From Escherichia coli (lineage in GTDB: Bacteria > Pseudomonadota > Gammaproteobacteria > Enterobacterales > Enterobacteriaceae): 64,000 bases of DNA. Shown here piece after piece: positions 34,808 to 44,455 of the stretch. The position numbers and the translations under genes were made by a program. Location of the stretch: assembly GCF_030013595.1 (NCBI RefSeq), contig NZ_CP122768.1; one strand, written 5' to 3'. Each line of letters starts with the position of its first letter. The first letter of the stretch is position 1. Under the pieces are notes generated by a model, which saw only the letters and a list, made by a program, of their open reading frames with translations, ran no database searches and had not been told where the DNA came from.

Positions 34808-38209
<3,402 letters not shown>

Positions 38210-38275: not shown

Positions 38276-38875
38276 ATGCGTAAACTTTATGCCGCCATTT
38301 TGTCCGCAGCCATTTGTCTGGCCGTATCCGGTGCGCCTGCATGGGCGTCTGAGCAGCAGGCCACGCTGAGCGTGGGGTATCTTCATGCCCGGACGAACGT
38401 TCCCGGCAGTGATGATCTGAACGGGATTAACGTGAAATACCGTTATGAGTTTACGGACACACTGGGGATGGTGACGTCATTCAGCTATGCAGGAGACAAG
38501 AATCGCCAGCTGACCCATTACAGCGATACCCGCTGGCATGAAGATTCCGTTCGTAACCGCTGGTTCAGCGTAATGGCGGGGCCGTCTGTGCGCGTGAATG
38601 AATGGTTCAGCGCGTATGCGATGGCGGGTGTGGCTTACAGCCGTGTGTCGACTTTCTCCGGGGATTATCTCCGCGTAACTGACAACAAGGGGAAAACGCA
38701 CGACGTGCTGACCGGAAGTGATGACGGTCGCCACAGCAACACGTCTCTGGCGTGGGGAGCTGGCGTGCAGTTTAACCCGACCGAATCCGTGGCCATTGAT
38801 ATTGCTTATGAAGGCTCCGGCAGTGGCGACTGGCGCACTGACGGTTTCATCGTGGGTGTCGGTTATAAGTTCTGA
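38276..38875 (+). CDS. lom: Lom-like outer-membrane beta-barrel protein (Ail/Lom/PagC family)
   Basis: Signal peptide MRKLYAAILSAAICLAVSGAPAWA; barrel ending ..GVGYKF. Confidence 0.8.
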   Translation: MRKLYAAILSAAICLAVSGAPAWASEQQATLSVGYLHARTNVPGSDDLNGINVKYRYEFTDTLGMVTSFSYAGDKNRQLTHYSDTRWHEDSVRNRWFSVMAGPSVRVNEWFSAYAMAGVAYSRVSTFSGDYLRVTDNKGKTHDVLTGSDDGRHSNTSLAWGAGVQFNPTESVAIDIAYEGSGSGDWRTDGFIVGVGYKF

Positions 38876-38902: not shown

Positions 38903-38928
38903 GCCCGCCGGTTCAGGCGGGCTTTTTT
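38903..38928 (+). terminator. Intrinsic terminator after lom
   Basis: gcccgcc-ggttcag-gcgggc followed by T6. Confidence 0.5.
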
Positions 38929-38939
38929 GTGGGGTGAAT

Positions 38940-41900
38940 ATGGCAGTAAAGATTTCAGGTGTACTGAAAGACGGCACAGGAAAACCGGTACAGAACTGCA
39001 CAATCCAGCTGAAAGCAAAACGTAACAGCACCACGGTGGTGGTGAACACGCTGGCCTCAGAAAATCCGGATGAAGCCGGGCGTTACAGCATGGACGTTGA
39101 GTACGGTCAGTACAGCGTTATTCTGTTGGTGGAAGGATTCCCGCCGTCACATGCCGGGACCATCACCGTGTATGAAGATTCCCGACCCGGTACGCTGAAT
39201 GATTTTCTCGGTGCCATGACGGAGGATGATGCCCGTCCGGAGGCACTGCGCCGTTTTGAACTGATGGTGGAAGAGGTGGCGCGTAACGCGTCCGCGGTGG
39301 CACAGAACACGGCAGCCGCGAAGAAGTCAGCCAGCGATGCCGGCACATCAGCCCGTGAGGCGGCAACCCATGCGACTGATGCTGCAGGCTCAGCACGCGC
39401 AGCCAGCACGTCAGCCGGACAGGCCGCGTCGTCGGCTCAGTCAGCGTCTTCCAGCGCAGGAACGGCATCAACAAAGGCCACTGAAGCGGAAAAAAGTGCT
39501 GCCGCTGCAGAGTCCTCAAAAAGCGCGGCGGCCACCAGTGCCGGTGCGGCGAAAACGTCAGAAACGAATGCCGCAGCGTCACAACAATCAGCAGCCACTT
39601 CTGCATCCACCGCGACTACGAAAGCGTCAGAAGCTGCCACCTCAGCCCGGGATGCGGCGGCCTCAAAAGAGGCAGCGAAATCATCAGAAACGAACGCATC
39701 CTCGAGCGCCAGTAGCGCAGCTTCCTCGGCAACGGCGGCAGGAAATTCCGCGAAGGCGGCAAAAACGTCAGAGACGAACGCCAGGTCTTCTGAAACGGCA
39801 GCGGGACAGAGCGCCTCGGCTGCGGCAGGCTCAAAAACAGCGGCTGCATCATCTGCCAGTGCAGCGTCAACAAGTGCCGGGCAGGCCTCAGCCAGTGCCA
39901 CCGCCGCCGGAAAATCGGCAGAAAGCGCCGCATCGTCTGCTTCAACAGCCACAACGAAGGCTGGCGAAGCCACTGAACAGGCCAGCGCAGCAGCGAGGTC
40001 TGCTTCCGCAGCGAAGACATCCGAAACGAACGCGAAAGCGTCGGAAACCAGCGCAGAATCCTCAAAAACGGCAGCCGCATCGTCCGCCAGTTCGGCAGTG
40101 TCATCGGCATCATCTGCGTCTGCTTCAAAAGATGAGGCGACCAGACAGGCGTCAGCAGCGAAGGGCAGCGCCACGACGGCATCCACGAAGGCGACAGAGG
40201 CAGCTGGCAGTGCGAGGGCAGCAGCTCAGAGCAAAAGTACGGCGGAATCTGCAGCAACGCGCGCTGAGACAGCGGCAAAACGGGCAGAGGATATTGCATC
40301 CGCCGTGGCGCTTGAGGATGCGAGCACGACGAAAAAGGGGATAGTACAGCTCAGCAGTGCGACCAACAGTACGTCTGAAACGCTGGCGGCAACGCCAAAG
40401 GCAGTAAAATCAGCCTATGACAATGCAGAGAAACGTCTGCAGAAAGACCAGAACGGCGCTGATATACCCGATAAGGGACGCTTCCTGAACAACATTAACG
40501 CGGTCAGTAAAACAGACTTTGCTGATAAGCGTGGTATGCGTTATGTGCGGGTTAACGCTCCTGCAGGTGCAACATCTGGAAAATATTACCCTGTTGTTGT
40601 TATGCGTTCTGCTGGCTCAGTAAGCGAACTGGCATCAAGGGTCATTATCACCACGGCAACGCGAACCGCAGGCGATCCGATGAATAACTGCGAGTTTAAC
40701 GGGTTTGTTATGCCTGGTGGCTGGACTGACAGGGGGCGTTATGCTTATGGAATGTTCTGGCAATATCAAAACAATGAACGAGCCATCCACTCAATAATGA
40801 TGAGTAATAAGGGCGATGATTTGCGCTCTGTGTTCTATGTTGATGGTGCTGCTTTCCCTGTTTTTGCGTTTATTGAAGATGGCCTGTCAATATCCGCACC
40901 TGGTGCTGATCTCGTTGTTAATGATACGACCTATAAGTTTGGGGCAACAAATCCAGCGACGGAATGTATCGCGGCGGACGTTATCCTTGATTTTAAGAGT
41001 GGCCGTGGTTTTTATGAGTCCCATTCGTTAATCGTTAACGATAACTTGTCGTGCAAAAAACTTTTTGCCACAGACGAAATTGTAGCGCGTGGTGGTAATC
41101 AGATTCGAATGATAGGTGGGGAGTATGGTGCATTATGGCGTAATGATGGCGCTAAAACTTACCTGCTGCTTACCAATCAAGGTGATGTTTATGGTGGCTG
41201 GAATACATTAAGACCGTTTGCTATTGATAACGCAACCGGCGAACTGGTTATTGGAACCAAACTGTCCGCAAGTCTGAACGGTAATGCATTAACAGCAACA
41301 AAGCTGCAAACGCCAAGACTGGTTTCTGGGGTTGAGTTTGATGGTTCCAGAGATATTACTTTAACCGCTGCGCATGTTGCTGCTTTTGCCAGAAGAGCAA
41401 CGGATACGTATGCCGATGCGGATGGGGGCGTTCCCTGGAATGCCGAATCAGGCGCTTACAATGTCACCCGCTCTGGCAACAGCTATATTCTGGTTAACTT
41501 CTATACCGGAGTCGGAAGTTGCCGGACATTGCAGATGAAGGCGCATTACAGAAATGGAGGTCTGTTCTACCGTTCCTCAAGAGATGGCTATGGTTTTGAG
41601 GAAGACTGGGCAGAAGTTTATACCTCGAAAAATCTTCCACCAGAAAGCTACCCAGTCGGCGCACCAATCCCGTGGCCATCAGATACCGTTCCGTCTGGTT
41701 ATGCCCTGATGCAGGGGCAGACTTTTGACAAATCTGCTTACCCGAAACTTGCAGCCGCTTATCCGTCAGGCGTGATCCCTGATATGCGTGGCTGGACGAT
41801 TAAGGGCAAACCTGCCAGTGGTCGGGCCGTATTGTCTCAGGAACAGGACGGCATTAAATCGCACACCCACAGCGCCAGCGTATCCAGTACGGATTTGGGG

Positions 41901-42293
41901 ACGAAAACCACATCGTCGTTTGATTACGGCACTAAATCCACGAATAACACCGGGGCGCATACGCACAGTGTGAGCGGTACAGCCGCAAGTGCCGGAAACC
42001 ATACTCATAGTGTCACAGGCGCATCAGCAGTCAGCCAGTGGTCACAAAATGGGTCAGTACATAAGGTAGTGTCTGCGGCCAGTGTGAATACAAGTGCTGC
42101 AGGAGCACACACTCATAGTGTCAGCGGCACAGCTGCATCTGCAGGTGCTCACGCACATACTGTCGGTATTGGTGCTCATACGCACTCTGTTGCGATTGGC
42201 TCACATGGACACACTATCACCGTTAACGCTGCTGGTAACGCGGAAAACACCGTCAAAAACATCGCATTTAACTACATTGTGAGGCTTGCATAA
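38940..42293 (+). CDS. Side tail fibre protein (Stf-like) with long Ala/Ser-rich repeat region
   Basis: N-terminus [26 protein letters not shown].. (lambda Stf-like); GAHTHS-type repeats near the C-terminus. Confidence 0.85.
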
Positions 42294-42877
42294 TGGCATT
42301 CAGAATGAGTGAACAACCACGGACCATAAAAATTTATAATCTGCTGGCCGGAACTAATGAATTTATTGGTGAAGGTGATGCATATATTCCGCCTCATACA
42401 GGTCTGCCAGCAAACAGTACCGATATTGCACCGCCAGATATTCCGGCTGACTTTGTGGCTGTTTTCAACAGTGATGAGGCATCGTGGCATCTCGTTGAAG
42501 ACCATCGGGGTAAAACAGTTTATGACGTGGCATCAGGGGACGCGTTATTTATTTCTGAACTCGGTCCGTTACCGGAAAATGTTACCTGGTTATCGCCGGA
42601 AGGGGAATATCAGAAGTGGAACGGCACAGCCTGGGTGAAAGATGCAGAAGCAGAAAAACTATTCCGGATCCGGGAAGCGGAAGAAACAAAAAACAGCTTG
42701 ATGCAGGTAGCCAGTGAGCATATAGCGCCGCTTCAGGATGCTGTAGATCTGGAGATCGCAACGGAGGAAGAAAACTCGTTGCTGGAAGCCTGGAAGAAGT
42801 ATCGGGTGTTGCTGAACCGTGTTGATACATCAACTGCACCTGATATTGAGTGGCCGGAAGAACCAGACACAATGTAA
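42293..42877 (+). CDS. Tail fibre assembly protein (Tfa)
   Basis: 194 aa immediately after stf with overlapping start. Confidence 0.8.
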
Positions 42878-43243
42878 GCGAAAAAGAAAAACCGCAGACA
42901 CGACGTATGCAGGACGTGCTGCGGTTGGCTGGTGAACTTTCGATAGTGCGAGTATTGAATGATTTCCAGCCGTTATTGATTTTATATAACTGTAGTGGAG
43001 TTATTCAACACACAGGCAAAACGGAATAATCTGAGAAAAAAGCGTGCTTCGCCAATCAGGGGGGCGAAGCACGTCTGAATGACACCTGAAAATTTCCCGT
43101 CCGTTAAGTGTCCGCCCCGAGAGAAGTGGGGAACCATAACACCCTGTCGGGACGCAGAAAGAAACAACACAACTTGCAGGGATATTTCTCGATACTGCGT
43201 CAATGGTGGGGGATGTTAAATTATTACACTTAGTTACAAATAG

Positions 43244-43279
43244 AAAAGCCTCTGACTTCATAAGCAGAGGCTTTTCTTA
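43244..43279. terminator. Bidirectional hairpin terminator near the prophage right end
   Basis: agcctctg-N10-cagaggct with an A-run before and T-rich tract after. Confidence 0.45.
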
Positions 43280-43395
43280 AATGCGCGTGCATTTTGCGTG
43301 TATATTTTTGTCTTTTTCTGGTCCGCTCACTGTCTGGTCAGTGTCCATAAGTGACTGTTTTTATAGTCTCTGTCTGGTTGTGGTCCTGTCAAAAG

Positions 43396-43422
43396 TGGTG
43401 GAGCTGGCGGGAGTTGAACCCG
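43396..43422. repeat. att core, right copy (within the ssrA 3' end)
   Basis: Identical 27-mer to 292..318. Confidence 0.8.
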
Positions 43423-43758
43423 CGTCCGAAATTCCTACGTCCTCGGTACTACATGCTTAGTCAGTCTTTACATTCGCTTGCCAGCTGCGGACGGACACGC
43501 CACTAACAAACTAGCCTGATTAAGTTTTAACGCTTCAACCCCAGGCAGGGCTTCCACGCGATCTCTTTTGGGTTTGACCTCTCTTGATCCCCGTCCTAAG
43601 AGCGGAGGCTAGGGAGAGAGGGCTCTAAGCAGGTTATTAAGCTGCTAAAGCGTAGTTTTCGTCGTTTGCGACTATTTTTTGCGGCTTTTTACGAGGCCAA
43701 CCGCCCCTCGGCATGCACCTTGGGTTTCGCAAATCCCGTCGAATCCAGAATCAGCCCC
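43396..43758 (-). ncRNA. ssrA: tmRNA (SsrA), 363 nt
   Basis: Reverse complement begins ggggctgattctggattcgacgggatttgcg.. and ends ..gggttcaactcccgccagctccacca; contains the tag-reading frame (..gcaaacgacgaaaactacgctttagcagcttaa). Confidence 0.95.
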
Positions 43759-43972
43759 AATGTGTAACGGTAAGTATACCAGATTCATGAGTGCCATGAC
43801 CAGCCTCAATGGCGTTATCGTTAAAGATTTAGCACCCATGTAGCCTGATTTTTATTCGATTAAGCAATGGGATGGCAACATTTGTGTCGGATGTGATAGC
43901 CAATAAGATGTTCATTCGCGCCGCCGGAGAGGGAGGCGCGGTGAGGAACTGGTCAATAATTGGAGTGCAGGT

Positions 43973-44455
43973 TTAACGGTGGGCGTTTTTCATGATACGC
44001 GCTTTATCCACCTGCCATTCGCGCTCTTTGATATCTGAACGTTTATCGTGCTGTTTCTTACCTTTGGCGACGCCGATTTTCACTTTGCACCAGGCATTTT
44101 TCCAGTACAGGGAGAGCGCCACTACGGTATAGCCTTCTCGATTGACGCGACCGTACAATGAGTCCAGTTCGCGCTGGTTGAGAAGTAACTTGCGGGTACG
44201 GGTAGGATCGCACACCACATGCGTGGAGGCCACAGCCATTGGCGTGATGTTAGCGCCAAACAGAAATGCCTCTCCGTCACGCAGAAGGACGTAGCTGTCG
44301 CTGATATTGGCTTTTCCTGCGCGCAGGGATTTAACCTCCCAGCCTTGCAGGGCAAGTCCCGCCTCGAACTCTTCTTCGATAAAGTATTCGTGCCGGGCGC
44401 GCTTGTTAAGCGCGATGGTCGCTGAACCAGGTTTATGTGCTTTTTTCTTCGTCAT
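43973..44455 (-). CDS. smpB: SsrA-binding protein SmpB
   Basis: 160 aa, [45 protein letters not shown].. Confidence 0.95.

Follow-up and report, generated by a model that had tools for sequence, protein, structure and literature searches.

The window, a stretch of 64,000 nucleotides of Escherichia coli DNA, contains a lambdoid prophage tail module in which J is followed by lom, stf, and tfa, all four of which are strongly matched by Pfam (Table 1). The original prediction that stf encodes a side tail fiber is correct, and a repetitive tract lies at the predicted position within it. The real start of stf is ATG 38940, which is preceded by GGGGTGA and by the lom terminator hairpin. PGAP assigned the same start in a relative with 98% identity, naming the gene stfR. 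The list of open reading frames (ORFs) extends stf to GTG 38934 (1119 codons), and the ORF numbering used below therefore equals protein numbering + 2. Fragments of the Stf protein present in databases carry wrong names.

Bioinformatic analysis of Stf identifies four Pfam domains (PF08400, PF21446, PF07484, and PF03335). At the N terminus, PF08400 (phage_tail_N) matches residues 3-136 with an E-value of 1.6e-71 (239 bits versus a cutoff of 26.6), and the PDB entries 9e7m/9mgh ('Tail fiber protein') align with residues 3-96 (E = 2e-51). Downstream of the tract, the T4 gp34-like domain is also matched by PDB 4uxe/5nxf (residues 708-778). The C-terminal part consists of a collar (PF07484, residues 909-956, E = 7.2e-12) and a receptor-binding tip, where PF03335 is also found, and PDB 2xgf (T4 gp37) matches the whole of residues 904-1119 with an E-value of 5.6e-88. 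Two DNA repeats, D4 and D12, encode GAHTHSVSG motifs in this tip.

Table 1. Coordinates of stf, its domains, neighboring genes, and off-frame ORFs in the window
Feature	Position	Strand	Details
J, tail tip	34811-38209		Pfam
lom	38276-38875		Pfam
stf, side tail fiber gene	38940..42293	+	1117 aa from ATG 38940
N-terminal tail-attachment (collar) domain and short linker	38940..39230	+	ORF aa 3-99
Two capping heptads (14 residues), in tract phase	39231..39272	+	contain F, L, M, V
Tract of 50 uninterrupted Ala/Ser/Thr-rich heptads	39273..40322	+	ORF aa 114-463
Junction motif (29 residues)	40323..40409	+	ORF aa 464-492, conserved
T4 gp34-like trimerization domain	40926..41225	+	ORF aa 665-764; PF21446, E = 3.4e-27
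Collar domain and T4 gp37-like receptor-binding tip, His-x-His repeats	41643..42290	+	ORF aa 904-1119
tfa, tail fiber assembly chaperone	42293..42877	+	PF02413 Caudo_TAP, E = 3.7e-45
tmRNA	43396-43758	-	after tfa, with smpB also there
Spurious +1-frame ORF, 335 aa, Arg/Pro/Gln-rich	39337..40344	+	0 stops in frame
Four spurious antisense ORFs	39107-39409, 39163-39606, 39437-40186, 39616-40299	-	

Heptad periodicity and helix prediction

The degenerate Ala/Ser/Thr-rich protein repeat that had been predicted is real. Residues 106-466 are 71% Ala + Ser + Thr, with 36% Ala, 23% Ser, and 12% Thr compared with 12, 9, and 8%, respectively, in the rest of the protein, and the combined fraction is at least 0.6 in all 30-residue windows from approximately residue 121 to 465. 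Of the two motifs that had been proposed to recur, KTSETNA is present in three exact copies and two variants, whereas SAxxSAxxAxTSA has no exact instance when taken literally, although the consensus underlying it is real. Similarly, the label 'low complexity' is correct for the composition but overlooks a strict heptad period, indicative of a coiled-coil rod rather than a floppy tract. Indeed, residue-identity autocorrelation is 0.38-0.43 at each multiple of 7 up to lag 56 (z = 8-10, 500 shuffles) and does not rise above background at any other lag.

When the tract is written in sevens, no phase break is seen, and the 50 heptads yield the consensus x-A-x-(T/S)-S-A-(S/T). A heptad HMM (Viterbi) likewise recovers one single segment (aa 114-459) with zero phase shifts, and there is no proline within the 50 heptads. 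Of the 50 heptads, 47 have Ala and 3 have Val in column 2, 37 have Ser in column 5, and 35 have Ala in column 6. The putative core would thus be small and semi-polar, one of its columns being Ala/Val throughout and the other predominantly Ser with an adjacent Ala. This interior differs from the canonical Leu/Ile/Val core, and canonical hydrophobic residues are confined to the end caps, which consist of the two heptads preceding the tract and its last three heptads. The last three heptads (21 residues) contain Ile, Val, and Leu and are conserved, and both caps show little or no variation among 24 relatives. In the two heptads that precede the tract, the residues Leu, Arg, Arg, Phe, Met, Val, Glu, and Glu are invariant in these 24 proteins.

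AF2 modeling of a monomer, using a 24-sequence alignment, predicts helix at residues 100-280 and 288-463 (6-186 and 194-369 of the modeled segment), with a mean pLDDT of 80.9 and 164 residues reaching 90 or more. The lone break in the predicted helix, which falls exactly at its midpoint, is in this model a fold-back artifact of modeling one chain of a homo-oligomer alone. A Pfam scan of the tract gave nothing above threshold, and searches of the PDB with either the whole protein or the tract alone found no solved structure over the tract segment. The tract-only search returned marginal matches to residues 172-267 of T7 gp17 (E = 0.04) and to a T5-type L-shaped tail fiber (E = 0.02), the matched stretches of which we take to be helical shaft parts of those fibers. 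A search of the literature on alanine-rich heptad tail fibers found nothing specific. We also considered a collagen-like prophage fiber, which was rejected because the tract lacks a Gly-X-Y period.

Repeat DNA, tract length, and the junction

The tract was originally predicted to be prone to slippage, a claim that we found to be unsupported by the DNA. Tandem Repeats Finder (minimum score 30), which had been suggested as a check, reports no array in the tract, and tandem units of 9-21 nt are absent also with one mismatch allowed. Exact direct repeats reach at most 12 nt, compared with a maximum of 11-13 nt in control segments of stf and 12.9 +/- 1.9 nt in synonymous shuffles of the tract, and the frequency of 6-nt near-repeats matches that in the controls. 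As assessed by the synonymous shuffles and control segments, exact and near-exact DNA repeats therefore show no excess over the effect of amino acid composition. In-phase repeat units are only ∼44% identical in DNA and 40% identical in amino acids, which we used as a baseline. Identical peptide motifs are encoded by different codons, and the members of DNA repeat family D1 are 78-89% identical. A search for higher-order repeats found a faint 112-aa (16-heptad) echo with at most 69% aa and 58% nt identity in 35-aa windows, which is barely above the in-phase baseline and points to an ancient rather than a recent duplication. Because constraint acts on the heptad pattern only, drift has altered the DNA, and the repeat persists at the protein level alone.

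The original prediction also held that the tract may vary in length, and proposed a comparison among relatives. This is the case between distant lineages but not among close relatives, in which length is kept. The anchor-to-anchor distance is identical in 115 of 120 close protein clusters, and three clusters show indels of +/-3 residues at locally repeated triplet motifs (SSA deleted, AAG duplicated). Of 5426 complete E. coli genomes, 3580 carry 80% or more of the tract, and E. coli copies number roughly 10,000 overall. In a spread sample of these genomes, the matches covering at least 98% of the query keep its span with two exceptions, one 1-nt deletion and one 132-nt insertion. The 1-nt deletion lies inside the tract of one E. 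coli relative, where it generates a pseudogene, and the 132-nt insertion is positioned after the tract in both relatives checked. Apparent span differences of +1 and +132 nt among the E. coli matches were rejected as tract changes, being located after the tract. The anchors are 346 aa apart in relatives L001, L004, and L005, with DNA identities as low as 89.7%, and tract length is unchanged in every intact E. coli relative checked.

For the distant comparison, we used 26 representatives of 50%-identity clusters in which both anchors are present. Their anchor distances are 93, 122, 129, 138, 143, 234, 241, or 346 residues, the window's tract belonging to the longest class found. In 22 of the 26 representatives, the difference from the 346 residues of the window is an exact multiple of 7 aa, and the in-phase differences amount to 15, 16, 29, 31, or 32 heptads fewer. 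Five of the seven distinct alternative lengths are in phase, where 1 in 7 is expected by chance (binomial estimate ∼1e-3). Block gaps in pairwise alignments are 105, 112, 224, 70, 147, and 49 aa long. Of 60 heptad segments with a length of 70 aa or more in the relatives, 52 have no phase shift, which corresponds to one shift per ∼1100 residues, and some relatives show residue skips of 1 or 5. Such rare out-of-phase changes, including the +/-3-aa indels, indicate that strict phase is preferred but not absolute. Length variation between lineages in whole heptads is as expected for a coiled coil, in which the length changes that survive would be whole numbers of heptads. The gp37-like tip is the same with 50 (the query and P0129), 35 (P0131), and 34 heptads (P0152). 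A further possibility, which we regard as rather unlikely, is that shaft length is tuned, whole-heptad changes adjusting the reach of the tip to the depth of the host O-antigen or capsule, with a small Ala/Ser core that would make such indels structurally neutral.

Identity to relatives is 90-99% over the N-terminal domain and the tract, and in many of them collapses at approximately residues 481-520, directly after a conserved 24-residue motif. The junction motif is common to the tail fibers H of P2, S of Mu/D108, and S of P1/P7. A tblastn search with residues 455-520 finds matches in P2-like, Mu/D108, and P7 phages, and the Mu S protein (5yvq) aligns with residues 438-523. A few junctions lie inside the tract instead, as for example in P0122 and P0133. 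The break in similarity just after the tract suggests that the N-terminal domain and the shaft form a conserved adaptor for exchangeable receptor-binding ends, different C termini presumably having been recombined onto it just past the tract. A fusion of lambda Stf 1-393 to P2 H from residue 251 is a working fiber (PMC11338833).

The tract as a candidate proximal shaft

In Ur-lambda, Stf is a trimeric fiber in which residues 102-393 form a proximal coiled coil, four trimers are present per virion, and adsorption is faster (Yu et al. 2025, Sci Adv, PMC12617516). In the same study, lambda gpStfN comprises residues 1-91 and is followed by a linker (residues 92-101), three linkers were seen linking three collar domains to the Stf bundle, and the lambda rod is an AlphaFold3 model fitted into cryo-ET density, without an atomic-resolution solution (PMC12617516). 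In laboratory lambda, orf-401 represents the N-terminal part of stf, and it aligns colinearly with the window's DNA with a single 315-nt gap inside the tract. At the protein level, P0127, which belongs to the lambda-length class (35 heptads), shares 259 identical residues with the window protein with one 105-aa gap. Because it is colinear with the lambda Stf coiled coil, the tract therefore corresponds to the same proximal rod, which in the window exceeds that of lambda by 15 heptads (105 aa, 315 nt). We consider it very probable that the tract is the proximal shaft of a lambda/StfR-type side tail fiber, a continuous helical rod that carries the receptor-binding part. The coiled-coil shaft of the lambda-type side fiber is already known from phage lambda; what we observed here are the heptad periodicity, the helix prediction, the lambda Stf homology, the in-phase differences in length, and the site of the mosaic junction.

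In such a shaft, approximately 52 consecutive heptads (364 residues) would form one continuous α-helix, and, on the basis of the homology with Ur-lambda Stf, three parallel chains would assemble into a trimeric coiled coil. Small residues would fill the core, probably Ala at one position and Ser with a neighboring Ala at the other. The rise of an α-helix is ∼0.148 nm per residue, and the 364 residues would thus produce a thin rod of ∼52-54 nm, some 15-16 nm longer than that of lambda. By analogy with lambda, this rod would hold the distal receptor-binding part, with its gp34-like and gp37-like domains, at a distance from the tail. The end caps with their larger hydrophobic residues probably set the register, and the interior would be a generic spacer. 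Because an Ala/Ser core is far less hydrophobic than that of canonical coiled coils, the stability of the rod must depend on its length and on the flanking domains.

Two other readings concern the tract itself. If it were a hypermutable, slippage-prone repeat, its length would shift often between close prophages and thereby vary the fiber, and the 3-residue indels at repeated triplets in 3 of 120 close clusters, the 1-nt deletion in one E. coli relative, and the different lengths in distant relatives could be seen in this light. However, we found neither an array nor tandem units in the DNA, the longest repeat is at control level, and in-phase units have a DNA identity of only ∼0.44, whereas length is preserved in nearly all close clusters and down to 89.7% DNA identity, and most of the tract is held by 3580 complete E. 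coli genomes. We therefore judge slippage to be very unlikely. The tract could alternatively be an intrinsically disordered, flexible linker tethering the receptor-binding part to the tail, a reading in line with its Ala/Ser/Thr/Gly/Lys/Glu-rich composition, which is typical of disordered linkers, and with the lack of a Pfam domain. Yet a disordered linker has no need of a strict 7-residue phase over 350 residues, nor would it explain length differences in whole heptads, and both the absence of Pro and AF2 helix with pLDDT above 90 across large parts speak against it. Moreover, the proximal rod of Ur-lambda rotates as a rigid body in cryo-ET (PMC12617516), and disorder thus appears highly improbable.

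The remaining alternative concerns the other reading frames. The tract has a GC content of 62%, versus 50% in the rest of stf, and contains 0, 2, and 1 stops per 350 codons in frames +1, -1, and -2, respectively, versus 14, 16, and 20 in a control segment of stf. This depletion results from its GCN/TCN/ACN codon composition, and the near-absence of stops in these three frames gives rise to five off-frame ORFs of 100-335 aa, in agreement with the spurious GC-rich antisense ORFs that had been predicted. The GenBank entry of phage phi458 includes one antisense ORF spanning the tract, labeled there as a hypothetical protein. That at least one long alternative-frame or antisense ORF is a real overlapping gene might be argued from this annotation and from ORF length (227-335 aa), but the translations are pure low complexity, and codon composition directly accounts for the missing stops. 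None of the four ORFs scanned (all but 39107-39409) is above the Pfam threshold, one antisense ORF having a sub-cutoff match of 18 bits versus a cutoff of 27. In addition, substitutions in the stf frame fall predominantly at codon position 3, with 65 of 107 relative to lambda, 54 of 77 relative to phi458, and 22 of 31 relative to an E. coli relative, a pattern that an overlapping constrained frame would suppress. This excess in all three relatives indicates that the stf frame is the one under purifying selection, and there is almost no likelihood of an overlapping gene.

The importance of a proximal shaft at this position lies mainly in annotation and engineering, and it opens no new biological question. 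For annotation, the tract is best treated as a structured spacer rod and not as junk, the composition of which predictably yields false ORF calls in other frames. For engineering, a conserved adaptor that tolerates length changes in whole heptads would be useful in the design of chimeric side fibers for phage-based delivery, and chimeric fiber engineering with lambda Stf 1-393 has already been achieved.

Among known systems, Ur-lambda Stf resembles the fiber in the window in having a collar domain, an A/S/T heptad tract with end caps, an 11-residue sequence at the junction, and a gp37-like tip, and in being encoded in the same J-lom-stf-tfa gene order. The two differ in size, 1117 aa in the window versus 774 aa for lambda Stf, and the window protein has an extra gp34-like trimerization domain between shaft and tip. 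A more distant likeness is to T7 gp17 (residues ∼150-270) and the L-shaped fiber of T5/DT57C, which share the same layout of a tail-binding domain, a trimeric helical rod, and a β-rich end, although their likeness to the tract is marginal (see E-values above) and may reflect composition only. The rods of T7 and T5-type fibers are much shorter, and their cores are more conventionally hydrophobic. Further close counterparts are E. coli prophage fibers of the stfR type (the name given by PGAP), which have the same tract length and the same anchor distance of 346 aa at 96-98% DNA identity, and the tracts of which differ from that of the window by point substitutions only. The prophage in the window adjoins tmRNA/smpB and, unlike one of its relatives, has no invertase gene after tfa.

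Variation next to the heptad tract

In some E. coli relatives (loci L005 and L007), we found a 132-nt (44-aa) insertion directly 3' of the tract of Ala/Ser/Thr-rich heptads in stf, the side tail fibre gene, at a point corresponding to window position 40358. This insertion duplicates the junction motif, the conserved stretch immediately following the tract; the motif is present twice in protein P0107. In relatives with this insertion, it is the repeat at the junction that varies rather than the heptads. In strain 2015C-3107 (L007, NZ_CP027317.1), stf carries a frameshifted annotation, caused by the loss of 1 nt within the heptads, at the position equivalent to 39441 in the window. The neighboring gpJ in this strain is broken by an IS3 element.

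The heptad tract also accounts for several errors in public records. In phage phi458 (OP434518), an antisense "hypothetical protein" is annotated over the tract (3004-3741, minus strand) and the real stf is split, while several partial Stf proteins in NCBI (P0010, P0020, P0029, and P0035) are labeled "short-chain fatty acid transporter."

Start codon and distal part of Stf

ORF calling placed the stf start at GTG 38934 (38903-38942 examined). The true start is almost certainly ATG 38940; a GGGGTGA ribosome-binding site lies immediately 5' of this codon, preceded by the lom terminator hairpin (cccgcc...ggcggg, then T6), and PGAP chose the equivalent start in a relative. Short DNA repeats of two families (D4 and D12) encode repeated GAHTHSVSG/His-x-His motifs in the gp37-like tip, and are a second repeat in stf, unrelated to the heptad tract. 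P0047, a plasmid-borne E. coli Stf of 875 aa, is 97-99% identical to the Stf of the window, yet it lacks approximately residues 521-800, i.e. the gp34-like middle part, which indicates that loss of a whole domain is tolerated or recent.

RNA matches and chromosomal site

The Rfam IS009 match is full length (214 bits) and lies wholly within the 3' part of the tfa CDS. The ALIL pseudoknot overlaps the end of a minus-strand ORF of 296 aa. Of the two tRNA genes, ARAGORN reports only the second, Gly-tcc.

Repeats and RNA features in the window
Feature	Position	Strand	Remark
isrK and C4 antisense RNA matches	8091-8279	+	adjacent to each other
ALIL pseudoknot	10780-10896	-	IS3-type frameshift signal
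Two tRNA genes	17364-17517	+	Rfam; adjacent, in prophage
D4/D12 repeats	41948-42197
IS009	42636-42834	+	Rfam
tmRNA	43396-43758	-

Within 42877-44455, the 3' end of tmRNA is ∼520 nt from the tail-fibre end of the prophage, with smpB located past tmRNA as seen from the prophage. Downstream of tfa, there is no pin-type invertase in the window, whereas in strain 2014C-3061 a 98%-identical stf is followed by a recombinase gene. That copy adjoins prfC, a chromosomal site different from the one near tmRNA/smpB in the window.
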